Shown one piece after another: positions 4,342 through 20,795 of a stretch of DNA of 62,012 nucleotides. The notes beneath the pieces were generated by a model. The model had not been told where the DNA came from and did not search any database. It saw nothing but the letters and a program-made list of their open reading frames with translations. Position 1 is the stretch's first letter; each line of letters opens with the position of its first letter. A program made the translations under genes and the position numbers. The stretch spans positions 1 through 62,012 of the forward strand of contig CAZQWH010000005.1 in NCBI GenBank assembly GCA_964597145.1. Reading direction: 5' to 3'. The stretch comes from an uncultured Candidatus Saccharibacteria bacterium. GTDB taxonomy: Bacteria > Patescibacteriota > CAZHWT01.

Positions 4342-4403
4342 CTACCTCAGGGCTCGCCTAAAGGATGACCATCCTCCAGACGGCAAAAGGCAAAACTCAT
4401 TCA

Positions 4404-4466: not shown

Positions 4467-4467
4467 G

Positions 4468-4566: not shown

Positions 4567-4594
4567 GATATACGATATACGACATACGAAATAC
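4567..4594. repeat. heptamer array GATATAC x2 GACATAC GAAATAC
   Basis: Read directly. Abuts the core. Confidence 0.85.
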
Positions 4595-4605
4595 GAACCC
4601 CTCCC

Positions 4606-4656
4606 GTCATCGCGCCCGTCCGCCTCTGGCGGAGGCGTAGCCGGAGAGATAGAATC
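4606..4656 (+). repeat. GTCAT...GATAGAATC hairpin module variant
   Basis: GTCATCGCGCCCGTCCGCCTCTGGCGGAGGCGTAGCCGGAGAGATAGAATC. Its 3' half matches the module at 12424-12460. Confidence 0.7.
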
Positions 4657-4811
4657 CCCTCTACAGTCCACGATCCACGCCCCAAGCAACAGCACCAGGT
4701 AAGCTGTACGTAGCCGAGGCGGGCATGATAAACTAAAGAAGCGACTGATAACAGTCAATAGTAAATGACATAGATGTTCTGAGCGAACATACTAAAAGGG
4801 AGTAAGTAGTT

Positions 4812-5309
4812 ATGGGAATTTTTGGTAATTTATTTGGTGGCGAAAAGCCAGCTGATAGTTTGAGCGATCGAGATAAACAAATGGCAGGTATGCCCAATCC
4901 CGAGTCAGCCCCACAAAGCCCTGCAAATTCCGAGGGCGAAGTGGATTTTCTTAATCATCCTGCCGGCGCTGCCCAATCAGCTGAATCTGCGCCAGCTGCT
5001 GCTCCCGAGCAATCTACCCCCCAGCCAGAGGCCGCGGCCAATCCACCTGCGGTAACCGCCTCAGCCGAAGTGAATCCTAGCGACGCCGATGTAGAACAGG
5101 TGGTTAATACGGTTAATCAGCAACTGGAAGGCACAGGCTTTAAATCAAGCGAGTCGGTAATTATCCAACCCAGCACAGATGTCTCACCCGAATCAACAAC
5201 CCCAACCCAACCTGAATCTTTGGAAACAACCACTCCTGCAGCGGAGTCTGCTCCCGTTGCGCCAGAGCAGCCAATCCAGCCAGGCAATGAAAAACCCGAA
5301 GCTGGTTAA
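4812..5309 (+). CDS. hypothetical low-complexity (P/A/E/S-rich) protein
   Basis: 165-aa ORF with an upstream GGGAG RBS. No recognisable domain. Confidence 0.4.
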   Translation: MGIFGNLFGGEKPADSLSDRDKQMAGMPNPESAPQSPANSEGEVDFLNHPAGAAQSAESAPAAAPEQSTPQPEAAANPPAVTASAEVNPSDADVEQVVNTVNQQLEGTGFKSSESVIIQPSTDVSPESTTPTQPESLETTTPAAESAPVAPEQPIQPGNEKPEAG

Positions 5310-5374
5310 GAATAGTAGAGAATGTTTCGGTGCCGAGTACCATCTTTCTGAAGTCTGATTACTGAACGATTTTT

Positions 5375-5400
5375 GTCATTCCTGTCTACGCAGGAATGAC
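5375..5400. repeat. perfect hairpin GTCATTCCTG-tctacg-CAGGAATGAC
   Basis: 10-bp perfect inverted repeat, a member of the GTCAT hairpin family. Lies between the 4812-5309 ORF and the helicase gene. Confidence 0.85.
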
Positions 5401-5438
5401 ATGTGTTAAAATCTCCTCTAAGAACGAAGAACTAACTC

Positions 5439-8400
5439 ATGGATGCCGAAGCCCAATTTCTAGAACGATATCAAAAATTAAATGACCAACAACGCCAAGC
5501 TGTCGATGCCTTAGATGGACCTGTATTGGTGGTGGCTGGACCCGGCTCAGGAAAAACTGAGCTGTTAAGTCTACGTGTGGCTAATATTTTACGACAAAAA
5601 GATCTCGCTCCGGGAAACATCCTGTGCCTGACTTTTACTGAGGCAGCCGCTACTAATATGCGGCAGCGCTTAGCCGGACTGGTTGGCCCCCTAGCCTACC
5701 GTGTTGCTATCCATACCTTTCATAGCTTTAGTACCGAAGTCATTAATCGGTATCCCGAATACTTTTATAGCGGAGCGTCCTTCCAGCCAGCTGATGAGTT
5801 AACCCAACTCGAGTTATTATCAGAAGTGTTTGCCACATTACCGTATAATAATCCACTATCTTCCAAGCATGAGCAAGAGTTTACCTATCTTCGCGATACC
5901 CAACGAGCCATCGGCGATTTGAAAAAAGCTGGATTAACCCCTAAGCAGTTTGAGAACATCTTAATTGCTAACCAAAAAGCGATGGAGGCAATCGTGGATT
6001 GGTTCGATCCAGTGTTTGGTCAACGTATCGGTAAGCAAACATTGCCAGCAGCTCAAAGCTTGGTTGAGCAATTAGCCCAAGCCGCTCAGAACACTGCGGG
6101 TCAGCCCGAGCCCGAAACAGTCCTCGGCCAACCCGAGTCAATCGTTCGTCAACTAGGTAAATCGCTGGCAATTGCGGTGGCGGAAGCCGAAGTCAGCCAT
6201 AAAACTGCACCACTGTCGGAGTGGAAAGCCAAATTCCTAACCAAAAACTCTAGCGGAGTATTCGTACCTAAGGATTATGTCGTATTTCCCAAGATGCAAT
6301 CCCTGCAAGCAATATATGACCAATATCGGCAAAGCATGCATCAGCAAGGCTACTTCGACTTTGATGATATGTTGTTGGATGTGCTGCAAGCCTTAACTGA
6401 GCATCCTGACTTGCGGTTTGCCATTCAGGAACAATATCAATATGTACTCGTCGATGAATTTCAAGATACCAATGATGCGCAATTGAGACTGGTCGGTTAT
6501 ATTACGGACGCACCTGTATACGAAGGCCGTCCCAATATTTTGGCCGTAGGTGATGATGACCAGGCAATATATAAGTTTCAGGGAGCTAAGATCTCCAATA
6601 TCCACCAATTTAATCAACACTATACCGGTGTCAATCAAATTGTACTAACTAAAAACTACCGGTCTGGAGCAGATATTTTGGCAATTGCCCGACAGGTGAT
6701 ACTTCAGGGTGAAGATAGGTTGGAAAATTACTATGCTGACATTAATAAAGAATTGGAAGCGGCCGGTGAGATCGGATCTGGTCGAGTAGCCTTTACGGCT
6801 TGCGATACGCGTGAACATGAATTCTACACCGTATCCCAACAAATCGCTCAACAAATTAAGAGCGGAGTTAGCCCGAATGAAATTGCTATAATTGCCCGCC
6901 GCCACAAGGATTTAGAAGATATCTCCGCATACCTAGAGAATCAGGGAGTACCAGTGCGGTACGACCGCCAGCGGAATGTACTACTGGAGCCGCATATTCA
7001 TCAGCTCGTTACCATAGCGCGCTTTGTACACCAAATGGCCCGGCACAATGCCGCAGAGGCCGATGAATTGTTGCCGGAAATTCTCAGCTATCCCTTCTGG
7101 GGATTAGATCGGGATACAGTCTGGGAGCTATCAGTTAAAGCCTCACAGGCCAATAAGCCGTCAGAACGGTTATGGGTATATCAAATGGAGCAGTCCAGCC
7201 AGAAGCAGCTACCGATTATTGCTGCCTGGTTTAAACAACTACGCAATTTAGCAGAGTCTGAACCATTAGAGAGTATGTTGGAAAAGCTGATTGGGGCGCA
7301 CACACCATTGCTGCCCATCGATATGGATGCCGATGATAGCACCTGGATGCAAGACCGGCCGCGGGTAAATGGCTATACTTCGCCATTTAAAGAGTATTAT
7401 TTCGACGAGCTTAAGCGTCAATCGGAACGAAGTCAGTATATTAGCTTCCTGTCTAGCCTCCAAGTGTTTATTACAGCCTTGCGGGCTTATAAACCAGGGC
7501 GACCACTCAAGTTGGAAGACGTAATTAATTTTGTCGATGTACATCAGGCCAATAACTTACCCGTTACCGATACCACGGTGTACGCCAGTGGAGAAAAAGC
7601 CGTGCAGCTGGTAACAGCCCACGGCGCTAAAGGCTTAGAATTTCCTTACGTCTACATACTTTCTTGTCAAAAATCAGTTTGGACTCCGGCAGCCAGGGGT
7701 AATAAGTTAGCTTTTCCCAGTAACTTACCCATTAGTTCCGAAGCCGACGATCGGGATGATATGTTGCGCATCTTCTACGTTGCTCTCACCCGTGCTCAGC
7801 GGGGATTATTCCTCAGCAACTATCGTTATGACGCTAAGGGTAAAGAAGTGGAAGGCTTGGAGTTTATTGCGGGAATTGAGTTGGAGTTGGCTCCAGTTGA
7901 GTCAGCCACATCGCAGTCGGAGCTAATTCTCTCTACAACATGGGAAACCTATCACCGCCCCCCATTGGTAGCCAGCGAAAAAGCTTTGCTCTTGCCACTC
8001 GTAGAGGATTACCAACTTAGCGTTACTCATCTCAATGACTTTTTAGATGTTACTCGAGGTGGCCCGCAGTCAGTATTGGAACAGCACTTGTTGCGATTTC
8101 CCCAGCCTTCAACTCTGGCCCAGGCATACGGAACAGCGGTTCATCGGTCTTTACAAGAGTTCTTTCAGCAATTTAAATATGATGCAGTATTGCCAGCACT
8201 AGAGTACTTATTACAAGCCCTACATCGGGCACTAACTCATGAACGATTAGCCGAGTCAGACTTTGAGCAATTGTGGCAACGAGGGCAAAGCGAGCTAACA
8301 CTTTACTATGAAAGTAAAAGTAGTAGCTTTGGATTGCAAGATATCGTCGAGCGCAACTTTAACTCGCAACAGGTAGTAGTAGGATCAGCCCATTTAACCG

Positions 8401-8816
8401 GTAAAATTGACCGGATTGTAGAAGTTGCCAAAGGTCGAGTAAGTGTTCACGATATTAAGACGGGTAAACCCTCAGCTAGCTGGAGCGGAGGAGACGCTAA
8501 CCAAAAAATAAAGCTCGATAAATATCGACGTCAGTTGTTATTCTATAAATTACTGGTAGAACACTCTCGCGACTACAGCAACTTGCAGGTCGTGTCGGGT
8601 ATCTTGGAATTTATTGAAGATTTAGATGGAAAATTCATTGAGCTTTCCTTGCCATTAGACGGATTAGATAAAGATGAGCTCGAGCGGTTAAAGTTGCTGA
8701 TAAATGCAGTTTATATTCATATCCAGCAGCTAAATTTCCCAGAAATTAGTGGATACTCTTCAGATATATCGGGAATGCGCCAATTTGAAGATGATCTAAT
8801 TGAAGGTAAGATTTAA
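5439..8816 (+). CDS. UvrD/PcrA-type helicase fused to a C-terminal PD-(D/E)xK (RecB/AddB-like) nuclease domain
   Basis: 1125 aa. Walker A VVAGPGSGKTE, motif II VLVDEFQDTN, VTAHGAKGLEF, YVALTRA. C-terminal GKIDRI..VHDIKTGK nuclease-like motif. Confidence 0.75.
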   Translation: MDAEAQFLERYQKLNDQQRQAVDALDGPVLVVAGPGSGKTELLSLRVANILRQKDLAPGNILCLTFTEAAATNMRQRLAGLVGPLAYRVAIHTFHSFSTEVINRYPEYFYSGASFQPADELTQLELLSEVFATLPYNNPLSSKHEQEFTYLRDTQRAIGDLKKAGLTPKQFENILIANQKAMEAIVDWFDPVFGQRIGKQTLPAAQSLVEQLAQAAQNTAGQPEPETVLGQPESIVRQLGKSLAIAVAEAEVSHKTAPLSEWKAKFLTKNSSGVFVPKDYVVFPKMQSLQAIYDQYRQSMHQQGYFDFDDMLLDVLQALTEHPDLRFAIQEQYQYVLVDEFQDTNDAQLRLVGYITDAPVYEGRPNILAVGDDDQAIYKFQGAKISNIHQFNQHYTGVNQIVLTKNYRSGADILAIARQVILQGEDRLENYYADINKELEAAGEIGSGRVAFTACDTREHEFYTVSQQIAQQIKSGVSPNEIAIIARRHKDLEDISAYLENQGVPVRYDRQRNVLLEPHIHQLVTIARFVHQMARHNAAEADELLPEILSYPFWGLDRDTVWELSVKASQANKPSERLWVYQMEQSSQKQLPIIAAWFKQLRNLAESEPLESMLEKLIGAHTPLLPIDMDADDSTWMQDRPRVNGYTSPFKEYYFDELKRQSERSQYISFLSSLQVFITALRAYKPGRPLKLEDVINFVDVHQANNLPVTDTTVYASGEKAVQLVTAHGAKGLEFPYVYILSCQKSVWTPAARGNKLAFPSNLPISSEADDRDDMLRIFYVALTRAQRGLFLSNYRYDAKGKEVEGLEFIAGIELELAPVESATSQSELILSTTWETYHRPPLVASEKALLLPLVEDYQLSVTHLNDFLDVTRGGPQSVLEQHLLRFPQPSTLAQAYGTAVHRSLQEFFQQFKYDAVLPALEYLLQALHRALTHERLAESDFEQLWQRGQSELTLYYESKSSSFGLQDIVERNFNSQQVVVGSAHLTGKIDRIVEVAKGRVSVHDIKTGKPSASWSGGDANQKIKLDKYRRQLLFYKLLVEHSRDYSNLQVVSGILEFIEDLDGKFIELSLPLDGLDKDELERLKLLINAVYIHIQQLNFPEISGYSSDISGMRQFEDDLIEGKI

Positions 8817-8839
8817 GGTCTGCCAGTAAATAACAGACA

Positions 8840-9535
8840 TCAGGAAACCTTCAATAACATTTTTAATCTATCCCAGATGGTAAGAGGATAAACAATCTGG
8901 TGAATCTCGTTAGCTAATAGGCTGTAACCTTGCCGGCTAAGGTGAAGACCATCTTTAGCCAAGAGCTGTTCTCGACCACTAGTCTGGTTTTTTGCCGCAG
9001 CATTGAGGAGGCTCCTGGCATCCAGTACCTCAAATCCATGGTTAGCACAAATCGTCTCCAGTAATTGGTTCGCTTCGGCCACAAAAGATCGAGTTCGAGG
9101 ATGTTCTCGGTGGTAAGGATTGTAAAGATTAATAAACAACACTTTGGTAGTTGGCGAAGTGTTTTGGGTAATAAGTTTAGCCAACTCATTCCAATTGTTG
9201 GTCAAGGTAGTCAAGGCTATACGCATTCGCTTCTCGCGCAAAAGGCGAGGGGTGGCTCGGTGGCCGTAGAGCCGCCAAGTGAGCCGTAAGTCGTTGCCAC
9301 CAATATTAACCGTAATAAGCTGAGCGAGCTTAAACTGGTCACGGTATTGGCTCTGTTTGCGCACTAATTGGGTGCTCGTTTGTCCGTTAGTAGCAAATAG
9401 CTGCAATGCTGTTGGCCGATGTTGTTCTAAAAGCGGCAGAAGCTGCTGCGGATACCCCCAGCCATTGCCCCCTACACCATTAGCCAGCGAGTCGCCCAGG
9501 GCAACGTAGTGAAATAATTTAGTTGATTGGGTCAT
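8840..9535 (-). CDS. SGNH/GDSL hydrolase family protein
   Basis: Start trimmed to the ATG at 9535 (MTQSTKL), because the upstream part of the ORF covers a hairpin. Motifs ALGDSLANG, NIGGNDL, DGLHLS. Confidence 0.65.
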   Translation of the reverse strand: MTQSTKLFHYVALGDSLANGVGGNGWGYPQQLLPLLEQHRPTALQLFATNGQTSTQLVRKQSQYRDQFKLAQLITVNIGGNDLRLTWRLYGHRATPRLLREKRMRIALTTLTNNWNELAKLITQNTSPTTKVLFINLYNPYHREHPRTRSFVAEANQLLETICANHGFEVLDARSLLNAAAKNQTSGREQLLAKDGLHLSRQGYSLLANEIHQIVYPLTIWDRLKMLLKVS

Positions 9536-9738
9536 GTTGATGTGTAATGCAAAAGGATACAAAAAAGGCCGCTTCTCAGCGGCAAATGTATGTATCAATT
9601 ATACGAAATTTTGAGGAGCCTTGTCAAATTTTATCCAAAATGAAGCCAAAAATTTTATTGTTTTGACAGCAGTAATTTTATCTGGGATAAATTAAGCTAA
9701 AAATAGCGGTGTGATATACTTGCTGGCAACTTGACCAA

Positions 9739-10191
9739 TTGATCACAGAAGAAGGTGTTGAGATGAACATCGATTGGATACGTTTGGTTATGAGCGTACC
9801 CATTGCCTTGGCCATTGCCCATCTGCTGAGTATTACAACCTTTGCCAGAATCCAGGTCATTAATCAGCGGCAATTGCCGTTGTACCAACAGGCTGCTCGT
9901 CAAATTGGTTGCCGGATGTCTGTTCACCACACTTACGTCGGGCTGGCCAACATTCCGCTTAAGCCCAACCAGGTCTGTATTCGCTATCCACACCGATATC
10001 TTCTGGAAATGGAGAGATTGGTGAGAAGTATAGAAGCCGATAAAAGAAAGAAGCTTGTACAAAGTCGGCATCAAACACCTAACGTGTATTACCATCGTTC
10101 GCTTCTGACCCCTCTTGAACAATTAGAACTTTACAAGATGGATGGGAAAAGAAGGGAGCTAAAAAGACGGTACTGGCTACCAAATGAGTAA
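9739..10191 (+). CDS. hypothetical membrane-associated protein
   Basis: 150-aa ORF with one hydrophobic helix and a charged tail. Supported by a putative upstream promoter and a downstream terminator hairpin at 10221-10246. It competes with an antisense ORF. Confidence 0.35.
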   Translation: MITEEGVEMNIDWIRLVMSVPIALAIAHLLSITTFARIQVINQRQLPLYQQAARQIGCRMSVHHTYVGLANIPLKPNQVCIRYPHRYLLEMERLVRSIEADKRKKLVQSRHQTPNVYYHRSLLTPLEQLELYKMDGKRRELKRRYWLPNE

Positions 10192-10220
10192 GTCGAATAC
10201 ACCCAGAGTCTGCCCTACCA

Positions 10221-10246
10221 GCCCGCATGCTTCATGCGGGCTTTTA
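10221..10246 (+). terminator. rho-independent terminator
   Basis: GCCCGCAT-gcttc-ATGCGGGC followed by TTTTAA. Confidence 0.6.
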
Positions 10247-10316
10247 ATGTGCCTACAGGCAAAACCCACAATTAAATAGCTTGCCCCTTTTCTCTTTTCC
10301 CTGTACCCTTAATCGT

Positions 10317-10970
10317 ATGATACGAGGATTATTTTTTGGTAAGCGCATCACGAGCTCTCCCGCCTTATCGGGCATAAACCCGGCGATTAGAGCCTTTATT
10401 ATTTCTGAGGTATTATTTTGGTCAGCTTGGAATATTATTATTCCGATTTTCGCCGTATTTGTGGTGGCTCAAATACCGGGCGCTACCATTGCCCAGGCAG
10501 CCTATGGGTTCACCACCTATTTGCTCGTTCGAATGGTAGTGGAATTATGGGTAAGTCATAAGATAAATCATCTTAGTAATGCCCAGCGGGCTATCCTAGA
10601 CATGGTCGGTATGTTTATTATTAGTTTGGCTTATTTAGGCCTAGTATTGCATCCAACTTTAGACGCAATTTTTGGCTTTTATATTGCCTGTGGCATAGGC
10701 ATGGGCATAGCTGCCCCCGCCAAAAATTCTTTGTTCAGTCGCAGTTTAGAGCCAGGCACCGAGTCAGCCATGTGGGGCGTCTATGATGTTGCCATCCTAT
10801 CTGGTATGGCTGTGGCTACCTCTCTCGGAGGGTATGTGGCCAGTCAGTACGGGTTTAAGGTCATATTACTGGCTGCTTGTGTAGTAAATATCCTGGGCGT
10901 AATCCCGTACTTCTTCTTCATTCGTCACTGGCGCAACAACCGTCGCACCATGCAAGGTCTATCCCGATAA
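10317..10970 (+). CDS. integral membrane protein (MFS-half-like, about 6 TM)
   Basis: Highly hydrophobic ORF. The ATG at 10317 is preferred over the TTG at 10281. Confidence 0.5.
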   Translation: MIRGLFFGKRITSSPALSGINPAIRAFIISEVLFWSAWNIIIPIFAVFVVAQIPGATIAQAAYGFTTYLLVRMVVELWVSHKINHLSNAQRAILDMVGMFIISLAYLGLVLHPTLDAIFGFYIACGIGMGIAAPAKNSLFSRSLEPGTESAMWGVYDVAILSGMAVATSLGGYVASQYGFKVILLAACVVNILGVIPYFFFIRHWRNNRRTMQGLSR

Positions 10971-11074
10971 GTTGGGCAGATTATCTCAGATGTCAATTAC
11001 TATAAGCTTTACAGCTTGGTCGATTCCTGCTATAATCTAAAGGAAGTTCATCAGAAGTCAGGCAAGGAGGAGAA

Positions 11075-11446
11075 ATGGCCAATCGACTGCAAGATGAAAT
11101 TCGTCGTTCTCAATTGCCGATAGACCGAATGGCTTCGATTCAAGGTGAAGAGATTTTGCGATCGTATAAGCACGGCAAGTACTACTTCGACGAATTAACC
11201 GGCCTGTACTGGATGATCGAAAGGGAAAGCCCCACCGATTTTCTGGCTCGGTTATTTCAGGTTGGCAGCGACGACGTTATGGTTGTAGAACGAAAGCAGG
11301 GCCGTGTTCGCAGTTACAAACATGGCCAGGACCAAGTCCACCCACTCCAGTTGGGATCAGACTCGTCAGCATATAAACTTCTAGAGAGCAAGCTGAGGTA
11401 TCCTCAGTTGCTGACCCAGCCAGATCTATGGAAAAAGCTAGCATAA
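11075..11446 (+). CDS. hypothetical protein
   Basis: 123-aa ORF with an AAGGAGGAG RBS upstream and a strong terminator at 11463-11495. Confidence 0.45.
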   Translation: MANRLQDEIRRSQLPIDRMASIQGEEILRSYKHGKYYFDELTGLYWMIERESPTDFLARLFQVGSDDVMVVERKQGRVRSYKHGQDQVHPLQLGSDSSAYKLLESKLRYPQLLTQPDLWKKLA

Positions 11447-11462
11447 TCTGCTAGTCAATCAT

Positions 11463-11495
11463 CTGCCGTAATCCAATGGATTGCGGCAGTTTTTT
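11463..11495 (+). terminator. rho-independent terminator
   Basis: CTGCCGTAAT..ATTGCGGCAG stem followed by TTTTTT. Confidence 0.7.
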
Positions 11496-11502
11496 ATGTG
11501 TT

Positions 11503-11952
11503 TTATAGCTGATGAGGCAAGTCTAAGAGTTTCAAGCCAGTCTCGGTATCAATGGATTTAGACAATGTGGTGGTTGTATGGAGTATTAGCTCAAGAGTTC
11601 CAGAAACACGCAGTTCAACCACATGTCCACCCAGGCAATGCATCTCGGTATCAGAAAAAGTACCATGGGCATGAATAACCAGCCCTTCTCGATCAAGCGC
11701 AATCGTGCCGGTGAGATTTGTCACTTCTAGAGCCTGGTCAAACTTTTTAGAACTATATTTCTGCGTGTCAACGTTGTAATGCGCTAGTTCGGCCTGGTCT
11801 ACCGCGCCAATCCCATAGAAAAAACCGCCCTCAATCTGCTCGTGCTGGCAAAATTCTTCCAAAGATGGTATGACCTTTTCCCCACGAACTAAACGCAGAA
11901 CAAAGCGATCAGTAGCCAATTTCTCGTAAAACATAACTCTATTGTAGTACAT
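11503..11952 (-). CDS. PPC/DUF296 DNA-binding domain protein
   Basis: 149 aa. The pattern RLVRGEKVIPSLEEF..GIGAV..LTGTIAL..HAHGTFSD..GGHV is typical of the PCC/DUF296 fold. Confidence 0.55.
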   Translation of the reverse strand: MYYNRVMFYEKLATDRFVLRLVRGEKVIPSLEEFCQHEQIEGGFFYGIGAVDQAELAHYNVDTQKYSSKKFDQALEVTNLTGTIALDREGLVIHAHGTFSDTEMHCLGGHVVELRVSGTLELILHTTTTLSKSIDTETGLKLLDLPHQL

Positions 11953-11962
11953 AGGGTGGTGA

Positions 11963-12025
11963 GGTCAAAGAGCAAAGCTCAAAAGGCAAAACGCATTCAG
12001 GAATACAGAATACAGGATACAGGAT
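11963..12025. repeat. degenerate heptamer array including the conserved end motif AAAACGCATTCAGGAATAC
   Basis: GGTCAAA GAGCAAA GCTCAAA AGGCAAA ACGCATT CAGGAAT ACAGAAT ACAGGAT x2. Confidence 0.85.
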
Positions 12026-12045
12026 GCTGGAGAAGGTTAGCATAC

Positions 12046-12160
12046 GTCATTGCGAAGGAGTGGTAACGACTGCGGCAACCTGCCCGCCATGCTTACGCAG
12101 CTGTTGCAGGCGGGTCTTGGTGGGATCTAGCAGATCGCCACGGCGTAGCCTCGCGATGAC
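12046..12160. repeat. pair of GTCAT hairpin modules in opposite orientation
   Basis: GTCATTGCGAAGGAGTGGTAACGACTGCGGCAAC (12046-12079, +) and GATCGCCACGGCGTAGCCTCGCGATGAC (12133-12160, -). The same pair occurs at 20985-21058 without the middle insert. Confidence 0.8.
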
Positions 12161-12171
12161 GGGGAAGGGAA

Positions 12172-12209
12172 TTTGTAGATCGTAGATTGTATATCGTATT
12201 TTGTATATC
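12172..12209. repeat. heptamer array TTTGTAG ATCGTAG ATTGTAT ATCGTAT TTTGTAT
   Basis: Read directly. Lies immediately 5' of core copy 2. Confidence 0.8.
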
Positions 12210-12308
12210 GGAGGTTGGAGATTGGTTATGGGGTTGGTATTTTGTGATTCCTGTCCGCAAGGCTGGTTATGGCTTGCCTAGTGGACGGGGCTTGTTTATG
12301 ATTTGTTT
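12210..12308 (+). repeat. 99-nt conserved core, copy 2 (candidate sRNA or MITE core)
   Basis: GGAGGTTGGAGATTGGTTATGGGGTTGGTATTTTGTGATTCCTGTCCGCAAGGCTGGTTATGGCTTGCCTAGTGGACGGGGCTTGTTTATGATTTGTTT. Confidence 0.85.
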
Positions 12309-12380
12309 GCTGATTGTGAGTTTCTAATTTTTGTATTTAATCGTCCTGTAGTTTGATCCCCTGCCTCCTGTCTTTTGTAT

Positions 12381-12415
12381 CCCACATCCCGACACCCGAC
12401 ACCCGACCCCCGACC
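12381..12415. repeat. heptamer array CCCACAT CCCGACA x2 CCCGACC x2
   Basis: Read directly. Confidence 0.85.
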
Positions 12416-12423
12416 CCCTTCCC

Positions 12424-12460
12424 GTCATTCTGGAACGAAGCGCAGCGAAGAGATAGAATC
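12424..12460 (+). repeat. 37-nt hairpin module GTCATTCTGGAACGAAGCGCAGCGAAGAGATAGAATC
   Basis: Copies or variants occur at 27949-27985 (+), 34137-34173 (-), 45164-45200 (-), 55818-54 (-) and 50273-50300 (+, inside atpD). Confidence 0.9.
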
Positions 12461-12464
12461 CCTT

Positions 12465-12520
12465 CCAAAGTCCAAAGTCCAAAGTCCAAAGTCCAAAGTC
12501 CAAAGTCCAAAGTCCAAAGT
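12465..12520. repeat. heptamer tandem array (CCAAAGT)x8
   Basis: Eight perfect units, followed by TCCCC and a promoter-like site upstream of the PIF1-like helicase gene. Confidence 0.95.
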
Positions 12521-12560
12521 TCCCCTTGAACCTTACCCCTTAAACCTGTAACCTTGTAAC

Positions 12561-13829
12561 GTGACTCAGGAACAAGCTCTACAACTACTCAAACAAGGCA
12601 AAAACGTATTTTTAACCGGTCCAGCTGGCAGTGGCAAAACCTATGTCTTAAATAAATTCATCGACCATTTGCGGCAATCCAAAGTGGTGGTGGGAGTAAC
12701 GGCTTCCACCGGAATTGCCGCCACCCATTTGGGGGGCGTAACTATTCACTCCTGGTCCGGCATGGGAATTAAAGATGCGCTAAGCGACGAAGATGTAGTC
12801 GCATTACTGATGCGGCCCTATCTGCGCAAGCGGATTGTCACCGCTAGCGTGCTGATTATCGATGAGGTTTCCATGCTTCACGCCTATCAATTGGACTTGG
12901 TAAATAAAGTCTGCCAAGCCTTCCGCGAGTCCAGCTTGCCGTTTGGGGGATTACAAGTAGTATTATGCGGCGATCTCTTCCAACTACCTCCGGTGTCAAA
13001 AAATAGAACTGAGAGTTTTTTTGTCACTGCCTCCGATAGTTGGCAGCAGGCCGAGGTTGTAGTGTGTTATTTAGAAGAGCAATATCGGCAAACCGATAGT
13101 CAATTAGAATCAATTTTGAACGCCATCCGCTATAACGAGGTTGACGAAGACGTATTCTTAACCTTGCAGCAGCGGTTTAATGCCGATGTTTCCGGATTAG
13201 CCCAGCCAACGCGATTATATTCACACAATATCGACGTCGATGCCGTTAACGCCGACCAACTCAAACAAATCGACGGTGAGGCAAGGGTGTTTGACATGCG
13301 CTTAACCGGCCAACCCCAATTAATTCAATCGCTAGTGAATGGGTGCTTGGCCCCCCAGCGTCTAACGCTTAAAGTTGGAGCGCAGGTCATGTTTGTTAAA
13401 AATAATTTTGAGAAAGGGTATGTTAATGGCACCATTGGCCAAGTAGTCGATTGGGATGCCGATGGTTTACCAGTAGTAGAAACCTTAGACGGTCGACTGT
13501 TAGACTTGGAAATGGCCAGCTGGCAGGTCGAAGAAGAAGGCAAAGTCCGGGCCGAATTAACCCAAATTCCACTCCGCTTAGCCTGGGCCATCACTATTCA
13601 TAAAAGTCAGGGCATGAGCTTAGACGCCGCTGAAATCGATTTATCCAAAAGCTTTGTCCCAGGAATGGGCTATGTGGCATTATCCCGTGTTCGCACCCTA
13701 GACGGCCTACGGATTAAAGGCATAAATAACACCGCTCTCCGGATTAATGAATTTGTCTTGGAATTAGACCAACAACTCCGCCAGCAATCGCGAATAGCAG
13801 CCGAAGAGATCACTCTTCACCCCGTATAG
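12561..13829 (+). CDS. PIF1/RecD-like superfamily 1 DNA helicase
   Basis: 422 aa with a GTG start. Walker A GPAGSGKTY, Walker B LIIDEVSM, LCGDLFQLPPV, C-terminal ITIHKSQGMS and YVALSR. Confidence 0.75.
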   Translation: MTQEQALQLLKQGKNVFLTGPAGSGKTYVLNKFIDHLRQSKVVVGVTASTGIAATHLGGVTIHSWSGMGIKDALSDEDVVALLMRPYLRKRIVTASVLIIDEVSMLHAYQLDLVNKVCQAFRESSLPFGGLQVVLCGDLFQLPPVSKNRTESFFVTASDSWQQAEVVVCYLEEQYRQTDSQLESILNAIRYNEVDEDVFLTLQQRFNADVSGLAQPTRLYSHNIDVDAVNADQLKQIDGEARVFDMRLTGQPQLIQSLVNGCLAPQRLTLKVGAQVMFVKNNFEKGYVNGTIGQVVDWDADGLPVVETLDGRLLDLEMASWQVEEEGKVRAELTQIPLRLAWAITIHKSQGMSLDAAEIDLSKSFVPGMGYVALSRVRTLDGLRIKGINNTALRINEFVLELDQQLRQQSRIAAEEITLHPV

Positions 13830-13855
13830 CAATGGTACAGCTCCACAAATGTATT

Positions 13856-13900
13856 AAAAAGCCGTGCTCATGAAATGAGCACGGCTTTCGCTTTGTTTGG
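13856..13900. terminator. bidirectional rho-independent terminator between convergent genes
   Basis: AAAGCCGTGCTCAT-gaa-ATGAGCACGGCTTT, flanked by an A-run and T-rich sequence. Confidence 0.75.
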
Positions 13901-13907
13901 TGGTGGG

Positions 13908-14468
13908 TTAAACCACCGTCTCCCAATATGAGCTCCAGCTGTAAACGGTCTTGCCGCTACTACTGAGGCTAAGAGGGCTGAATCGACGCCGGAACCGCCG
14001 ACTACTCATTGTCACAATTTGATGTGCTCTTGCATCTGGAAACAGCAGATTGAGCTGCTGTCCTATCTCCGAGTCGTCGGTAAAATGTTGATAGGCTTTG
14101 GCATCGGCCTCACCTATTCCAACCAGCCCGCCGGTGCGACTGTTGACGAATTCGTTAAAGTCTCTGTCTGTGGCCGGGTCGCAATAATTATTGATGTACA
14201 GTGACAGCCGTGGTCTCTGAAACCTATCGCTATTGCGTATAGTAACAAAATCACGGCCGTACCGGTCACTATCCAGGTGAACCTCTCTACCCTTACGACT
14301 ACTGTAGAGGCCACTTGGTCCACCCCACTGCGAGAAACTATCCCGCAACGAGTATTCAAGGGTAGCGATCAGGCTCGCTGTCGCTGCAATGCCATACTGT
14401 TGCAGGTAGTCTGCGATAGCATGGGCCGCTTCAATTCGATCCGGCTTCTTAATTTGCCATCGTGCCAC
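13908..14468 (-). CDS. hypothetical protein
   Basis: 186-aa ORF that shares a bidirectional terminator with the convergent helicase gene. No recognisable motif. Confidence 0.45.
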   Translation of the reverse strand: MARWQIKKPDRIEAAHAIADYLQQYGIAATASLIATLEYSLRDSFSQWGGPSGLYSSRKGREVHLDSDRYGRDFVTIRNSDRFQRPRLSLYINNYCDPATDRDFNEFVNSRTGGLVGIGEADAKAYQHFTDDSEIGQQLNLLFPDARAHQIVTMSSRRFRRRFSPLSLSSSGKTVYSWSSYWETVV

Positions 14469-14655
14469 GTCATTTCTCCTACTCAGACGAACACAAATCG
14501 AGATTTCAGCAAGTATAGCATTAAAACAGTAAAATGTAAACTATAGGTTTAATACAAAGATGAAGAAGAGCTTCCAGTTGTAATAATCAGAGAATAGGGC
14601 GAATAACTCCATAAACAGCCAAGGTTATATGTAGGTGTAAAAACGCGCGTCTAAC

Positions 14656-14910
14656 TTAAGCGTCTTTTTTCGTGTGGGAGTGGTGGTAAGCGCGTTGCAT
14701 GCGCTGTTCTTTAGCTAAAATTGCCGCTTCACGCTTCTGCTCTTGTTTAGCTACGTCAGAATCAACCTTAGCCTGGCACTCAGCATCGGCGCAAATCATC
14801 AGAGTGTGTTTCACTCGCGAAGTGCCACTGATCGTTTCGATTTCTTCATCCCAGGTTTTTGCAATCACGCGGGGGGCGCCGCAGCGAGGGCATGGTATTG
14901 GTAGATCCAT
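14656..14910 (-). CDS. hypothetical zinc-ribbon protein
   Basis: 84 aa with CPRC..C..C cysteine pairs and a basic helical tail. Confidence 0.45.
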   Translation of the reverse strand: MDLPIPCPRCGAPRVIAKTWDEEIETISGTSRVKHTLMICADAECQAKVDSDVAKQEQKREAAILAKEQRMQRAYHHSHTKKDA

Positions 14911-14986
14911 ACGGCCTTCTTCCCGGCAGTTCTTATAGTCTAGAGCAAATTATATCACAGATAGCCAAGTTTGCCTAATCCATCAC

Positions 14987-16186
14987 TTACGGAGTGGGGA
15001 CAAAAGTTAACGCCACGCCAGTTTGGCCAGCACGACCGGTTCGGCCAATGCGATGGGTATAATCTTCGTACGTTTGGGGAATATCAAAATTGATGACATG
15101 GGTCACATTGGGAATATCCAGACCGCGAGCGGCCACATCGGTCGCAATTAAGGCCTGAATTCGATTGTCTTTAAACTGAGACAAAGCCTTAGCTCGCTGG
15201 GGTTGGGTTTTGTTACCATGAATAGCGGCCACTTTAACCCCTTCCCGCTCTAACTTTTGAGCAATTTTTTGCACCCCCCACTTGGTTCCGCCAAAAACCA
15301 GCACCTTGCTAAACTCTGGCCGATGCAGCATTTTACGTAGTTGGTCCATTTTATCATCCGGTGAAGTCACGAAAACCACATCCTGCTCCACATGCTCACT
15401 AGTTTCGCGCGTCCGCACCGAGACCGTAATCGGATCGGTTAAGAAGGTATGAGCCAAGGCGTCAATTTCTTTAGTCATAGTGGCCGAGAAGAATAGGGAT
15501 TGGCGCTGTTTGGGCATAGCATCCACCAAAAAGCGGATATCGCGAATAAAGCCCATATCCAGCATCCGGTCGACCTCATCTAATACCAGCACGTTCGTCC
15601 GACTAACGTCTAAATTTCGGCGTACAATTAGATCCTTCAGTCGGCCCGGCGTGCCAATCACAATGCGGGGATGTTTTTTTAACTGGGAAATTTGCTTGTA
15701 CATGCTTTGCCCACCAATACAAACAGCTGTTTTAATGTTGAGGCCCTGGGTAAAGGCGGCGCATTCCTCGTTAATTTGCAGTGCTAACTCGCGAGTGGGC
15801 ACGATAATCAAAGATTCTTCACGACTACCAGCTAAGATGCGGTTAATAATTGGCAATAAAAAGGTAGCGGTTTTACCCGTACCGGTATTAGCCAGACCAA
15901 TTAAATCGTGTCCAGCCATGACCGGCTTCATGGCCTGGTCTTGAATTGCAGTAGGGTGAATATAGCCCCGATTTTCCAAATTAGTAGTCAACTTAGATCC
16001 AAAGTCAAAGTCGGCAAACGTGTGTGTTGGCTGGTAAGCCGCAACCTGCTCTACCACCTGAGCCGCATTAATAAAGCGTTCAATATTAATTTGGCTACCA
16101 GCTTTTTGACGCTTAGGCCCCAAAGCACGAGCGGCCGCAGCATTTCTACCACGATGACGTGGGTTAGGTGAAAAACGATGTTTCAT
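14987..16186 (-). CDS. DEAD-box ATP-dependent RNA helicase
   Basis: 399 aa. Q-motif region, ANTGTGKTATF, PTRELA, TPGR, DEVD (DEAD variant), SAT, ARGLD, HRIGRTGRAG. Confidence 0.85.
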   Translation of the reverse strand: MKHRFSPNPRHRGRNAAAARALGPKRQKAGSQINIERFINAAQVVEQVAAYQPTHTFADFDFGSKLTTNLENRGYIHPTAIQDQAMKPVMAGHDLIGLANTGTGKTATFLLPIINRILAGSREESLIIVPTRELALQINEECAAFTQGLNIKTAVCIGGQSMYKQISQLKKHPRIVIGTPGRLKDLIVRRNLDVSRTNVLVLDEVDRMLDMGFIRDIRFLVDAMPKQRQSLFFSATMTKEIDALAHTFLTDPITVSVRTRETSEHVEQDVVFVTSPDDKMDQLRKMLHRPEFSKVLVFGGTKWGVQKIAQKLEREGVKVAAIHGNKTQPQRAKALSQFKDNRIQALIATDVAARGLDIPNVTHVINFDIPQTYEDYTHRIGRTGRAGQTGVALTFVPTP

Positions 16187-16394
16187 ATGATTATTAGTCT
16201 AAAGGGGAGTCGTTGGGTAATAGTAAATAATGGAAGTCGACTCTAGGTTAAACGACCGTAACTTCCTCGCTGACTGTCACTAATGATTAAATGGCAGACC
16301 AGCACATCTATTCACGACAACGAGAGGCCAGTATACCACAACTTTTTATTTATATCAACTATAGGTTATTTATGAGTAAATCACCAAGGACGTT

Positions 16395-16418
16395 TGTTAC
16401 GTAACATGTTACGTAACA
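16395..16418. repeat. tandem pair of the perfect 12-nt palindrome TGTTACGTAACA
   Basis: Read directly. A near-identical 24-mer occurs at 55791-55814. Confidence 0.9.
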
Positions 16419-16562
16419 AAGCCATTTTATCTGAGTAAAAAGTGATAAAGAATGGTTAAGAGGTAGGCAAAAATTCGGGTCAATGTCTGGACGAAGTTCC
16501 TATCGAGCCAGTAATTATGGCGTGATTTTGTCAATTGCCGCAATCTGTCATAATGCCTCTAT

Positions 16563-17102
16563 ATGAATACTAAGCCCTCCATAAAGCAAAGCATATTAAT
16601 TACAGGGATTGCGGGGTCAGGCAAGTCGACTCTTTGCACCAAACTGATTGAGCGAGGCTATGAAGCCTATGGAATAGAGGATGTTGAGGGTATGTTTGCC
16701 ATGTATCGCATAGGCACCAAAGAACTTTTTACGGACTTTGATAATGCTGACCCAGAAAAAATTAATAACTCTGAGTGGCTGTGCAATATTGAGAAGCTAG
16801 AATCTCTCATTGCCAGTCAGACAAGCAATCTCGCCTTTTATTGTGGTGTTGGTTCCAATATGGAAGAGATTATCCCACTTTTTGACCGGGTATTTTTATT
16901 AAAAGCCAATGCAGCTGCCATTCATAGACGTCTCTCAAACCGCGAAGGAACGGATGATATGGGTAACACAGAAGAAAGCCGTCAGGCGGTACTCGGCTGG
17001 AAAGACTGGTGGGAAAACGATATGGTAGAAAAGGGCGCAATAATTATTGATGCTCAGGGAGAGCCAGACGCTGTTATTAAAAAGCTTTTAGAAAAACTTT
17101 AA
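16563..17102 (+). CDS. P-loop NTPase / nucleoside-kinase-like protein
   Basis: 179 aa with Walker A GIAGSGKST near the N-terminus. Size and layout resemble small-molecule or nucleotide kinases. Confidence 0.5.
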   Translation: MNTKPSIKQSILITGIAGSGKSTLCTKLIERGYEAYGIEDVEGMFAMYRIGTKELFTDFDNADPEKINNSEWLCNIEKLESLIASQTSNLAFYCGVGSNMEEIIPLFDRVFLLKANAAAIHRRLSNREGTDDMGNTEESRQAVLGWKDWWENDMVEKGAIIIDAQGEPDAVIKKLLEKL

Positions 17103-17232
17103 GATGGTAGAAAAGGAAAAACGCTGGTGTGGATGGTTGGGCAACTATCGGATTTGAATAGAAGCAGAATAAAGAAAAAAGCGGCACCCCTATACTGGGG
17201 TGCCGTCGGTGTTAATCAGTAGCGTTGGTGTG

Positions 17233-17550
17233 TTACTGACTGGCTGTCATGGCAAAGGTGAGCCTTGGCGATGGAAATTTTTGAGCGTAGGTCGGCCCTT
17301 CGTATGTCACCTTCCAACCTACATCTCGGTATGCACCTTCAACATCAAGCCATCCTTTCTTGTAAACCTCTCGGGAGTCGACACCCACCTCCTTTAGCCG
17401 CTGAACGACATCGTGTTCATAAATTGTGGCTACCCGACCACTACCAATAGTCTCTAAGATGAGAGCATTGAACACCTCAAACACCACCTCTGGTATCTGC
17501 GAGGCTTTGTTGCTGGCTACTTCTTCCGGTGTAATTGGCCGCTTCAACAC
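17233..17550 (-). CDS. hypothetical protein
   Basis: 105-aa ORF with no motif. An overlapping antisense ORF is less protein-like. Confidence 0.4.
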   Translation of the reverse strand: MLKRPITPEEVASNKASQIPEVVFEVFNALILETIGSGRVATIYEHDVVQRLKEVGVDSREVYKKGWLDVEGAYRDVGWKVTYEGPTYAQKFPSPRLTFAMTASQ

Positions 17551-17955
17551 GACACCACCTCCTTGGGAGTTACGACAAAGTCTTCGTCAGTACTCTACAG
17601 AACCCACGCAGTATACCAAACTATAGGGTAGTAATCAAAGAACTTGGTATAAAACTCAAAGAGTAACCCTGAAAGGAGAGCTACGTACTCATATTATTCT
17701 GTACTTTTAATACGGGTTGTCCTACTCTAGCGCAGCATCTATTCTGACCATCTATAGAGATCCTCAATCAAGCTGAGAATGACAAAAAAGATTACACACC
17801 TGAACTAGCGGTGTAAGTCCGGTTAAAACTCAACGTTAGTTACGGATGCTTAAATAGAAATAAAGTTATCTAAGATAAAAGAGAAAATTGCATTGAGTCT
17901 AAGGTGGCGATAGTCAGGATGAATGACTCTGTGCCACTCATCCTGACAAAACATC

Positions 17956-19236
17956 TCATCTAACCTTGCCGAGCTCCTTTACTCGTTGGACGAGTTCAGG
18001 GGATAGATAGGTGTGAACTTTATCGTCCGACCAGATGGCTTGCTGCAGAAATTGCTGCATGTGCGGCTCTTCTTGCAGAAGCTCGTTCATGATCGCTCGC
18101 AACAACTTTGGGCTTATGCCCACTTCACGGGCTGCTTGGCCAAGACTGCACCATCCCGGCTTAGGCAGGCTCTCCTTGATATGCCCCACCAAGTCAACAT
18201 GCACCACTTTGCGCTGCCGCCCCATCCAAGGATGCACGGCGACCAATGGCTGAAGATCTGGCTTTTGCTTGAATAGAGAGCGCATGGCCGTTTCTAAGCG
18301 GTATTTCGACACGCCAACTTCGGCTGCCGTCTCTCCTAAACTGAGCCAGCCAGGCTTTGGCAGTCGGTCGCAAGCTTCTTTGAGTAAGTCGACATGAACG
18401 AAGTATCGGGCAAGCCCCTTACCCACCCATTCAGCTCTACCCACTTCGCGCTTCGGATCTTCCTCAATCAGCTGATTAATTGTGTTGCGCAGTCGATCGC
18501 GCTTCACCCCCGTCAGCTGGGCCGCCTGGTAGAGACTAATCCAATCGGGTTTTGGCAGCTGTGCCTTAGCTAAGTCCAGAAGTTCAACATGAATAAACCG
18601 GTGAACGTGCCCTTCAAATACTCGTTCCTCACTCAGGTGGGCGAGTGTAGGGTTATTCTCAATCAACGCATCTATCACAGAGTGCAGCTTGGTTTTGTGC
18701 ACTCCTACCCATTGGGATGCAGGCAGCGTGTGTAGCCAACCAGGCTTAGATGAAGCTGGGGTAGCAGTGCGTCTCGATTGAGCCGACCAGAACTTTTTGG
18801 GTCCAACCTGCCACTGCGACCAAATTGTCTGTCCGTGTAGGTTCTTGGCAGCAACAGGACGCCCTACTAATCCAACTGGCCGCTTTCCTTCCGCGACCGC
18901 GTCGTATAGCAAGTCGTAGTCAAGCTGCAAGACCTGGTGTAATGCTGCAGCCATAAACTCAATATCCCCATGCCAAAAGCCCGTTTCTAGCTGTTCGATA
19001 TCCTTGGCTTGTAACCGTCCTAACTCGCACCGAATAGCTGCTTCTTCTACTGTCAGGTTGAGTTGCTTGCGCCGAATACAAGACACTGCCCCAAAGCTAA
19101 TTTTCCTCCGGGCTAGTAAGTCAATCAACCCAATTGGGCTGGTGCATACTCTGCCCCAATATCGGGGGAGGGTTTCGATAAGCGACTCCGATATCTCATC
19201 ATAGCCCACCTTAGGGTTGGCAACCGAGACGGTCAT
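17956..19236 (-). CDS. multi-HTH protein: N-terminal XRE-like HTH plus four tandem repeats of about 65 aa
   Basis: 426 aa. N-terminus RRKQLNLTVEEAAIRC. Four repeats are anchored by LPKPGW(L/C/I)SL..AA..(V/T)G(V/I) and ..VHVDL. Confidence 0.55.
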   Translation of the reverse strand: MTVSVANPKVGYDEISESLIETLPRYWGRVCTSPIGLIDLLARRKISFGAVSCIRRKQLNLTVEEAAIRCELGRLQAKDIEQLETGFWHGDIEFMAAALHQVLQLDYDLLYDAVAEGKRPVGLVGRPVAAKNLHGQTIWSQWQVGPKKFWSAQSRRTATPASSKPGWLHTLPASQWVGVHKTKLHSVIDALIENNPTLAHLSEERVFEGHVHRFIHVELLDLAKAQLPKPDWISLYQAAQLTGVKRDRLRNTINQLIEEDPKREVGRAEWVGKGLARYFVHVDLLKEACDRLPKPGWLSLGETAAEVGVSKYRLETAMRSLFKQKPDLQPLVAVHPWMGRQRKVVHVDLVGHIKESLPKPGWCSLGQAAREVGISPKLLRAIMNELLQEEPHMQQFLQQAIWSDDKVHTYLSPELVQRVKELGKVR

Positions 19237-19463
19237 ACAACTCTCCTTTGGTTTGTGCGTATATACATCTCCGCTATTTGGTTGCCAATCTTAGCATATA
19301 ACTCAGGAAAATGCACCGTATAGTGTTAATTATGAGGCTTGGGTAATTATCCGCCACAAAACTTCTGGTTCGGTGTACACTCCTGTGCAACCTATCGTGA
19401 TATCAAGATGCCTCAGAGGGTATGGGGTGAAAGTGGGTACAGCTTAGAGTGGTAGCACGCTAG

Positions 19464-20770: not shown

Positions 20771-20795
20771 AAGCTACAGATTTTCATACTTCTTC

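Follow-up and report, generated by a model that had tools for sequence, protein, structure and literature searches.

A 99-nt intergenic sequence of a Patescibacteria bacterium as the probable overlap of longer, recently gained mosaic repeats

Genomes of Patescibacteria (CPR bacteria) are usually compact. REP elements, known from other bacteria, can stop or stabilise transcripts. Heterocystous cyanobacteria reportedly harbor STRR heptamer arrays and small dispersed repeats, of which Mazel in 1990 and Elhai in 2008 are said to have given accounts. GTAG- and CGTC-tagged palindromic repeats were described by Di Nocera et al. 2013 (PMC3733652): a tagged REP has an unpaired tag at one end, a stem of 8-9 bp starting with AT and a loop of 4-5 nt, and REPs reach a high copy number per genome, those of the GTAG type being associated with a RAYT transposase (PMC3733652). 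Heptamer repeats have been described in two further papers (PMC4692102; PMC4679880). Here we describe a 99-nt sequence present three times in a 62-kb stretch of Patescibacteria DNA (62,012 nt, hereafter the window). We regard it, with reasonable confidence, as a non-coding mosaic repeat of the REP/BIME/MITE type, gained recently, the 99 nt being the overlap of mosaics of approximately 200-400 nt.

The host belongs to the Patescibacteria/CPR, and its intergenic regions are unusually large and filled with repeats. Intergenic DNA accounts for 22.6% of the window, which starts and finishes in tandem repeats, and 35 of its 59 tandem-repeat (TRF) rows have a period of 7. Arrays of this period amount to 16.6 bp/kb in the window. 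None of the 75 CPR loci compared with it reached this density, and their median was 0. The genes are chromosomal, including those for pyrophosphatase, RadC, a UvrD-like helicase-nuclease, PIF1-like and DEAD-box helicases, MscS, DusB, GpsA, Zwf and ATP synthase. No transposase, integrase, reverse transcriptase or RAYT/Y1-transposase domain was found in the 43 ORFs scanned across the 62 kb, and no tRNA gene was found in the window. A CPR host had already been guessed in the earlier note on this DNA, and the gene relationships agree with the guess. The DusB gene adjoining one of the three copies has relatives among GTDB species representatives that are all Patescibacteria/CPR. The best of them (L005) is 65% identical, and several genes of its contig are also present in the window. 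When the PIF1-like helicase and DusB were searched against a large protein collection, all names returned were those of Patescibacteria. A cyanobacterial origin, considered on account of the heptamer arrays and of modules of the type 'CGTCATTGCGA...', was rejected, as the DusB and PIF1-helicase relatives are all Patescibacteria and syntenic, and neither the core nor the whole mosaics have a blastn match in any of the 72,556 PLSDB plasmids.

The three copies of the 99-nt core are found at 4468-4566 on the minus strand (copy A) and at 12210-12308 and 21087-21185 on the plus strand (copies B and C, respectively), and all of them lie between ORFs. The earlier note had reported the sequence in these three places with few mismatches; all three were located, and the ungapped alignment of all 99 nt shows identities of 95% for B-C, 94% for A-B and 91% for A-C. 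The 28-nt 5' part of the core occurs at exactly three places, with 0 mismatches at 12210 (+), 2 at 21087 (+) and 0 at 4566 (-), for a chance expectation of 0 matches in the window. A fourth copy was not found in the 62 kb, either by short-word BLAST or in an unfiltered search with a covariance model made from the three copies. In base composition the core is 76% G+T (T39 G36 A13 C11). Its last part, at positions 81-99, is a T-rich tail.

Ten sites vary across the copies. Copy B is the nearest to the consensus, with a single private change at core position 81. Copy C has four, all within the 5' heptamer-like tract (positions 3, 21, 30 and 32), and copy A has five (positions 60, 66, 69, 71 and 82), four of them in the inner hairpin. 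The variable sites look neutral, as those of copy A cluster in the inner stem and loop, where the change at position 69 breaks a G-C pair and none is compensated. The same sites bear on the idea that the core encodes a small protein. Frame 2 (EVGDWLWGWYFVIPVRKAGYGLPSGRGLFMIC) is free of stops in every copy, and A and C are crossed by ORFs of 84 and 108 aa, but nine codons differ between the copies and every one of them changes the amino acid (one of the ten variable sites is synonymous in this frame). Moreover, the copies have no start codon in common, the frame-2 peptide has no relative among 5.8 billion proteins, and an open frame is expected from 76% G+T. We give a coding role practically no credit, in agreement with the earlier note, which had considered a conserved peptide poorly supported. 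A template/variable repeat pair of a diversity-generating retroelement (DGR) was also rejected, as the variable sites involve all four bases, a reverse transcriptase is lacking and all copies are intergenic; so was a tRNA-derived element.

Core positions 1-40 (12210-12249 on the plus strand in copy B) are a decayed array of GT-rich heptamers, reading GGAGGTT GGAGATT GGTTATG GGGTTGG TATTTTG TGATTCC. The lag-7 autocorrelation of this tract is 0.58-0.61 in the three copies (0.61 in copy B) against approximately 0.35 at other lags, with a shuffle p of 0.003 in A and B and of 0.02 in C. The many GG tracts that had been pointed out in the 5' half of the core are indeed present, six of them within 28 nt, and might be taken as a sign of an element acting at the DNA level, such as a two-tetrad G-quadruplex, a cruciform at the palindrome or an array of protein-binding sites. 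Quadruplex-forming arrays of G-rich heptamers are known from Nostoc and Xanthomonas (PMC4692102), and the gene downstream of copy B is that of a PIF1-family helicase. Nevertheless, tracts of GG only would lead to weak, two-tetrad structures, copy C turns one GGGG into TGGG, and the helicase gene adjoins just one of the three copies, so that we consider such an element very unlikely.

The decayed array is followed, at core positions 41-80, by a 40-nt imperfect palindrome, located at 12250-12289 (+) in copy B, at 21127-21166 (+) in copy C, where the sequence is identical to that of B, and at 4487-4526 (-) in copy A. The 9-bp stem with two G-T pairs that the earlier note had seen in the core, CCTGTCCGC/GTGGACGGG, is present and invariant in all copies, and makes up the outer part of a longer hairpin of 16 pairs, four of them G-U. 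The B/C hairpin has a predicted RNA folding energy of -24.3 kcal/mol on the GT-rich strand versus -13.5 kcal/mol on the complement, and none of 200 shuffles was as stable on the GT-rich strand (z -5.3). In copy A the inner stem is weakened and the predicted energy is -19.6 kcal/mol (z -2.6). DNA folding parameters rank the hairpins as RNA parameters do. The suggestion that the stem pairs work as G-U on one strand only was also correct, all four wobble pairs being G-U on one and the same strand. Significant structure is confined to positions 41-80, the stability of the whole 99 nt on the GT-rich strand being ordinary (z -1.0 to -2.2).

Fifteen of the 16 pairs are invariant across the three copies, one is broken in A and none is compensated; since only three near-identical sequences are available, covariation says nothing for or against the structure. 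By arithmetic from the observed divergence, the probability of zero change in the 18 stem bases is approximately 0.15. Strand asymmetry and an invariant outer stem are expected of a transcribed RNA, and also of a sequence with 76% G+T and low divergence. One module alone, at 20878-20930, has a stretch of 22 nt in common with the 5' arm of the core hairpin, a likeness that is nominally significant, weak after 22 comparisons, and to be taken as a hint only.

A hairpin followed by a T-rich tail could point to a cis-acting RNA module, kept for its action as an intrinsic terminator, an insulator or a 3'-end stabiliser when the GT-rich strand is transcribed. The strength of the 16-pair hairpin (-24.3 kcal/mol, z -5.3) and the sequence that follows it, GCUUGUUUAUGAUUUGUUU, with 11 U in the last 17 bases, are consistent with this possibility, as is copy C, which stands in sense orientation downstream of MscS, in the convergent spacer between MscS (+) and DusB (-). 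However, MscS already has a canonical palindromic terminator (20740-20772), beyond which core C lies by approximately 350 nt. Within it, the palindromic terminator-like site AAACGTATATACGTCCGTATATACGTTT (20740-20767) is conserved in relatives and served as the anchor for site C. The other two copies fit a cis-acting module less well: copy A (-) is antisense to both of its neighbours, RadC and a 165-aa ORF, which are plus-strand genes, and copy B lies ahead of a gene, in the spacer that separates a PCC-domain gene (-) from the divergently oriented gene of the PIF1-like helicase (+). The orientation of the core relative to the neighbouring genes is therefore not fixed. In addition, the clear terminators of this genome are short-loop hairpins followed by unbroken T runs, whereas the U-rich tail of the core is interrupted and a terminator pattern scan did not call the core hairpin; four changes in copy A weaken the inner stem as well. 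We find it doubtful that the core is maintained for such a role, although a cis-acting RNA role can be compatible with the repeat explanation, as a co-opted one.

The mosaic repeat that we favour becomes apparent when the surroundings of the core are considered. Composite C (20945-21266, +) starts with inverted heptamers CAGAATGCAGGATGC, followed by module X, module Y (ending GATGACGGGGAAGGG), GTATATC x2 and the core; 3' of the core come TTTCGTA x4, heptamers of the GTATCCT type and the end module Z. Composite B (11969-12520, +) is made up of an inverted Z, heptamers, X, an extra 34-nt GC hairpin (12084-12117), Y, heptamers and the core, and then of decayed heptamers, an inverted CGTC-tagged module (12421-12463) and TCCAAAG x8; its repeat region extends approximately 40 nt further, up to the GTG start codon at 12561. 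Composite A (4382-4678, -) comprises a GGGATTCTATCTCT...GATGACGGGAGGGG module, heptamers, the core, heptamers and Z. A fourth mosaic, at 27630-28063 (+), has no core: its outer frame is as in B, with Z and heptamers on the left and a CGTC-tagged module and TCCACAG x8.6 on the right, and its inner modules are different.

Composites B and C thus have in common the order CAGGATR heptamers, X (CATKGCGAAGGAGTGGTAACGACTGCG...), Y (...AGATCGCCACGRCGTAGCYTCRCGATGACGGGGAAGGG), GTATATC heptamers and core, and A and C share, 3' of the core, (C)GTATTT heptamers, GTATCCT-type heptamers and Z (CTGTATTCCTGAATGMGTTTTRCC), the Z of composite B being inverted and on the left side. The heptamers around the copies had been described in the earlier note as different. 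This holds for the 3' flank of B alone, as every copy has GTATATC x2 directly on its 5' side, and both A and C are followed by (C)GTATTT repeats. The ends of composite C, CAGAATGCAGGATGC and GCATCCTGTATTCTG, are 15-nt heptamer sequences (20945-20959 and 21215-21229) that are 93% complementary and 255 nt apart; the inverted ends of B are decayed (72% over 18 nt) and A is devoid of a left end.

Homology between the copies continues well beyond 99 nt in every pair. Between B and C it joins 12013-12308 with 20945-21185 (298 columns, including the 34-nt extra hairpin of B), between A and C 4382-4580 with 21257-21073 (199 nt, 85% identity), and between A and B 4439-4614 with 12339-12152 (188 columns, 82% identity). 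Since the homology runs on in each case, the limits of the 99 nt are the overlap of three differently cut mosaics and no edges of a unit. The view of the 99 nt as a core unit had to be given up, as pairwise similarity extends for 190-300 nt into heptamer arrays and palindromic modules. The flanking modules are 89-91% similar between copies, about as much as the core itself (91-95%), which argues that the 99 nt are not selectively conserved. The earlier note had also foreseen that the copies might be internal parts of a longer element encoding a protein: they do lie inside longer repeats, but no parent that encodes a protein was found in the window.

The companions of the core also recur in the window without it. 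Z is present in four copies, one of them with its heptamers at 27630, and X-like modules in three, one of them at 3499. At least six copies of a GTCATTCTGG...AGAATC module were found, the form GTCATTCTGG...GAGATAGAATC being located at 12424, 27949, 34135, 45162 and 55816 and, in part, at 4643. The heptamers that accompany a module may change from place to place: one and the same module has TCCAAAG x8 behind it at 12464 and TCCACAG x8.6 at 27989. In each of the three spacers, a total of 283 to 488 nt recurs at some other place in the window.

Such an abundance of repeats raises the question of whether the contig itself is sound. Tandem repeats stand at both window ends, and short-read contigs break in the heptamer arrays and modules around the mosaics, as they would if a repeat had been collapsed or mis-joined. 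Per-sample assemblies of the same population (runs SRR11843815-37) have contig ends mostly in repeats around the composites (4639, 12018, 12491, 21177 and 21212-21218); one more, at 20768, lies in the palindromic terminator, and several others are in unique sequence. Contig breaks at heptamer arrays and modules are nonetheless what multi-copy sequence produces. Against an artefact, the three copies differ at 10 sites and stand in different flanks, and these independent assemblies agree with the window at 99.95-100% identity as far as the edges of the repeats. Two of their contigs end 9 nt inside core C, confirming its junction with the heptamers and Z. We regard an assembly error as extremely improbable.

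The age of the mosaics can be judged from sister lineages recovered from other metagenomes, in which the local gene order is kept and the helicases are 80-89% and DusB 76-81% identical to those of the window; the comparison of orthologous spacers covers sites B and C. At site B, the spacer between the PCC-domain gene and the PIF1-like helicase gene has 608 nt in the window versus 86 nt in L219/L220, 55-109 nt in L221, 81-162 nt in L218 and 304 nt in L222. Each of these five relatives has a GTACAATGC motif (GGTGTACAATGC in four of the five) 30-45 nt upstream of the conserved GTG start of the helicase, and L218-L221 have a purine-rich AGGA/GAAGG stretch between this motif and the GTG. Both are missing upstream of the GTG in the window, where the repeat-filled spacer is found instead. 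In L218 this spacer contains heptamer arrays too, made of other units (GTAGTAA and TACATAC).

At site C, the palindrome and AACTCAGATAA are conserved between the window (20720-20767) and L229/L218, and the distance from the palindrome to the DusB stop is 525 nt in the window versus approximately 85 nt in those two relatives. The extra ~440 nt consist of composite C and two CGTC-tagged stem-loops. Neither the core nor modules X, Y and Z nor the CGTC-tagged module were found by blastn or by the covariance model in ~55 kb from the relatives, and a more distant relative (L231, helicase 72% identical) is 9.6% intergenic and has no period-7 arrays. Regarding target-site duplications, no flanking direct repeat was seen besides the heptamer arrays, and the spacers of the relatives are too diverged for insertion points. 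Since the same spacers are short and devoid of these mosaics in the nearest relatives, the mosaics were gained recently in this lineage.

Searches in wider collections gave a similar picture. The 20-base 5' anchor of the core has no exact match in GTDB genomes, the 5' and hairpin anchors have none in JGI metagenomes, and IMG/VR yielded chance k-mer matches only, of up to 21 nt. The covariance model found no core in 1.2 Mb of CPR loci, and a search for diverged copies with BLAST and the covariance model in the window, in 75 CPR DusB loci and in 8 loci of closer relatives returned noise only. As far as public data show, the repeat is restricted to this population.

These absences also bear on the possibility that the copies are three paralogous genes for a trans-acting small RNA of approximately 100 nt, transcribed from the GT-rich strand. 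The strand-asymmetric hairpin with its four G-U pairs and invariant outer stem would suit such an RNA, and the U-rich tail could act as its terminator. On the other hand, neither the orthologous spacers of close relatives nor any of the collections searched contain the core, and the 5' 40 nt are a decayed microsatellite. A comparison with Rfam covariance models, which the earlier note had recommended, produced nothing: with Rfam 15 there were 0 matches at the gathering score in the window and 0 even at E<=10 in the region 11900-12600. Nor do the copies share a promoter-like site upstream at a fixed distance, as the upstream heptamer arrays differ in length. The sole promoter-like match in common, TTGCCT-17-TATGAT, is inside the core and faces outwards; it carries no weight, because promoter-like sites in the scan are at chance level (33 found vs 28.9 expected). 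A small-RNA role has the strand asymmetry in its favour, which 76% G+T also explains, and is otherwise unsupported; we consider three small-RNA genes quite unlikely. Of the two options in the earlier note, a small RNA or a MITE core, that of a repeat element fits, as the core is internal to mosaics, its orientation to genes is not fixed and the orthologous sites B and C are empty in close relatives; the small RNA and a MITE in the strict sense are unsupported.

A mosaic repeat would explain these observations as follows. The mosaics draw on a small vocabulary of live heptamer microsatellites, decayed heptamer tracts and short stem-loop modules, of which the core supplies a decayed heptamer tract and the 40-nt imperfect palindrome, together with its T-rich tail. 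They probably spread as DNA, as selfish or expanding repeats, and two routes may be envisaged: copying by a trans-acting enzyme encoded elsewhere in the genome, in the manner of REPs and MITEs, or recombination and gene conversion between heptamer arrays. The arrays themselves would grow and become homogenised through replication slippage, for which the TCCAAAG and TCCACAG arrays behind one and the same module may serve as an example. When the GT-rich strand is transcribed, the hairpin of -24 kcal/mol and the U-rich tail could stop or stabilise transcripts, an RNA-level effect that would be a by-product or a later co-option and no cause of the repetition. The apparent conservation of the 99-nt core would then follow from its three copies being young paralogues of a longer repeat.

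A bolder proposal is that mosaics of heptamer arrays and hairpins constitute an undescribed class of self-propagating elements in Patescibacteria, with the core as a building block and a copying enzyme that perhaps recognises the GT-strand hairpin as single-stranded DNA or RNA. In a variant of this proposal, the hairpin RNA of the GT-rich strand would be a functional small RNA or insulator born from the repeats. We hold this to be unlikely. If the proposal were true, such elements would have more than doubled the intergenic DNA of a streamlined genome and replaced native promoter and ribosome-binding regions.

The main use of the present result is that it averts the false lead of a conserved non-coding core. 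A CPR genome inflated by repeats is more notable than the core itself. At the PIF1-like helicase gene, the mosaic extends as far as the start codon and has taken the place of promoter-like and Shine-Dalgarno motifs retained in the relatives, and the sister lineages, with different arrays at the same loci, offer a natural series for the study of the origin of mosaics and of their effects on gene expression.

Compared with known systems, the mosaic repeat shares features with three of them. It resembles MITEs in that the mosaics are small, non-coding, multi-copy and intergenic, and absent from orthologous sites, sites B and C being short and empty in relatives with 81-89% protein identity. Composite C is bounded by 15-nt inverted sequences that are 93% complementary. 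Unlike in MITEs, these inverted ends are heptamer repeats; composite B retains them in decayed form and composite A on one side only. The 99-nt core itself is without inverted ends, and neither a parent insertion sequence nor a transposase was found in the 62-kb window. The abundant intergenic tandem heptamers of many types, nested with hairpin modules, recall the landscape of STRR and small dispersed repeats in cyanobacteria, and tandem heptamers make up the flanks and the 5' tract of the core, though not the hairpin. Here, however, the host belongs to Patescibacteria/CPR, the heptamer units are others, and there is no similarity to PLSDB, cyanobacterial plasmids included.

The closest likeness in organisation is to the REP/BIME elements of Proteobacteria. 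Like them, the core has a short, GC-rich imperfect palindrome, with a 9-bp outer stem, extragenic in all copies, found in both orientations, combined with other motifs into mosaics, species-specific in sequence and abundance, and possibly forming an RNA hairpin when transcribed. The window does hold many stem-loops of the form '[C/T]GTC-AT-stem...stem-AT-C', which fit the CGTC-tag pattern, and the core palindrome is not one of those listed. Its membership among CGTC-tagged REPs was rejected, since CGTC occurs in it on the reverse strand only, inside the stem (CCCGTCCAC), and is followed by CC and not by AT. It further differs from REP/BIME in being 40 nt long with an internal branch and without an unpaired tag, in having heptamer microsatellites as partner motifs, and in a window without a RAYT gene. 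The core repeat is, then, a new sequence family of a known kind, a REP/BIME-like mosaic.

Copies A (4468-4566, minus strand) and B (12210-12308, plus strand) of the 99-nt core lie within a series of genes for DNA repair and helicases (3649-16186), encoding RadC, a UvrD-like helicase that carries a PD-(D/E)XK nuclease domain, and PIF1-like and DEAD-box helicases. The UvrD-like, PIF1-like and DEAD-box helicases retain their order in relatives, which rules out a mobile island. Between the DEAD-box helicase and DusB, the window carries an extra segment of ~4.5 kb (16187-20720) with genes for an AAA ATPase, two unknown proteins of 105 and 426 aa, and MscS; a second segment, with a 186-aa ORF (13908-14468), lies after the PIF1-like helicase. 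Both segments are missing from two relatives with conserved local gene order (L218 and L229) and from the more distant L231, and in all three the flanking genes are adjacent.

The start region of the PIF1-like helicase gene, next to copy B, was compared with that of five relatives (L218-L222). All five have the promoter-like motif GTACAATGC upstream of a conserved GTG start, the motif reading GGTGTACAATGC in four of them, and a purine-rich AGGA/GAAGG Shine-Dalgarno-like stretch is likewise kept in four of the five. Neither the motif nor the Shine-Dalgarno-like stretch is present at 12521-12563 of the window, in which the repeat-filled spacer extends directly to the GTG.

Intergenic DNA makes up 22.6% of the window, a Patescibacteria contig, and 9.6% of L231, a relative that has the same gene order. 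Arrays of period 7, built from many differing units, account for 35 of the 59 tandem repeats recorded in the window (for example, 1-55, 12464-12520, 27989-28048 and 50759-50811), and their density of 16.6 bp/kb exceeds that of all 75 CPR loci compared with the window. Heptamer arrays like those of the window were absent from L231, and the sister lineage L218 has other heptamers at the same spacer. In another CPR metagenome-assembled genome (L059), a ~110-nt element consists of two heptamer arrays separated by 37 nt and is present twice, in inverted orientation and identical in sequence, with 1.3 kb between the copies (13631-13727 and 14936-15032), while inverted heptamer arrays form long hairpins in L061 (3917-4060) and L019 (3457-3532). 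Taken together, these arrays indicate that a layout of heptamers around a short unique piece recurs in the CPR group with unrelated sequences.

The ATP synthase beta ORF (48496-50709) is 737 aa long, its Pfam domains stop near residue 429, and the reading frame of its C-terminal third crosses heptamer arrays at 50058-50587; this length is therefore probably either an artefact of stop-free repeats or the product of a repeat-encoded tail.

Within the core itself, copies B and C share a sigma-70-like match, TTGCCT-17 nt-TATGAT (12274-12302 and 21151-21179), directed out of the 3' end, and in copy A its -35 part is changed. An outward-reading promoter would fit this match, which we treat only as a lead because the sigma-70-like scan as a whole was at chance level. 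A stem-loop, GATTCCCGC...GCGGGAATGAC, lies ~150 nt upstream of copy C (20878-20930) and contains a 22-nt stretch, TTTTGATTCCCGCCGAAGGCT, that also occurs in the region of the core hairpin's 5' arm. The likeness, weak after multiple comparisons, hints that the core palindrome derives from the module family of that stem-loop.

In contrast to the 99-nt core, a REP-like family, TGTCATCCTGA-(loop)-TCAGGATCT, is found across species. It has an 8-bp stem beginning with AT and a loop of ~5 nt, and occurs in the window at 53029-53062, 53207-53240, 54838-54871 and 61928-61984, forming a 23-nt tandem at the right end. The family is also found directly downstream of DusB in the relative L230 (~8052-8080) and once in L026.

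A superfamily of stem-loops in the window has the form [C/T]GTC-AT-stem...stem-AT-C, with loops of ~12 to >100 nt and tags starting at 3416, 12045, 12423, 20795, 27738, 27920, 45129, 51232, 55227, 55911, 59590 and 60022. Intergenic DNA carries CGTCATT at 8.6 times the density found in coding DNA. CGTC-tagged REPs were not reported beyond five other phyla in the survey of Di Nocera et al. (2013; PMC3733652), and the [C/T]GTC stem-loops of the window match the form of the CGTC-tagged pattern described there.
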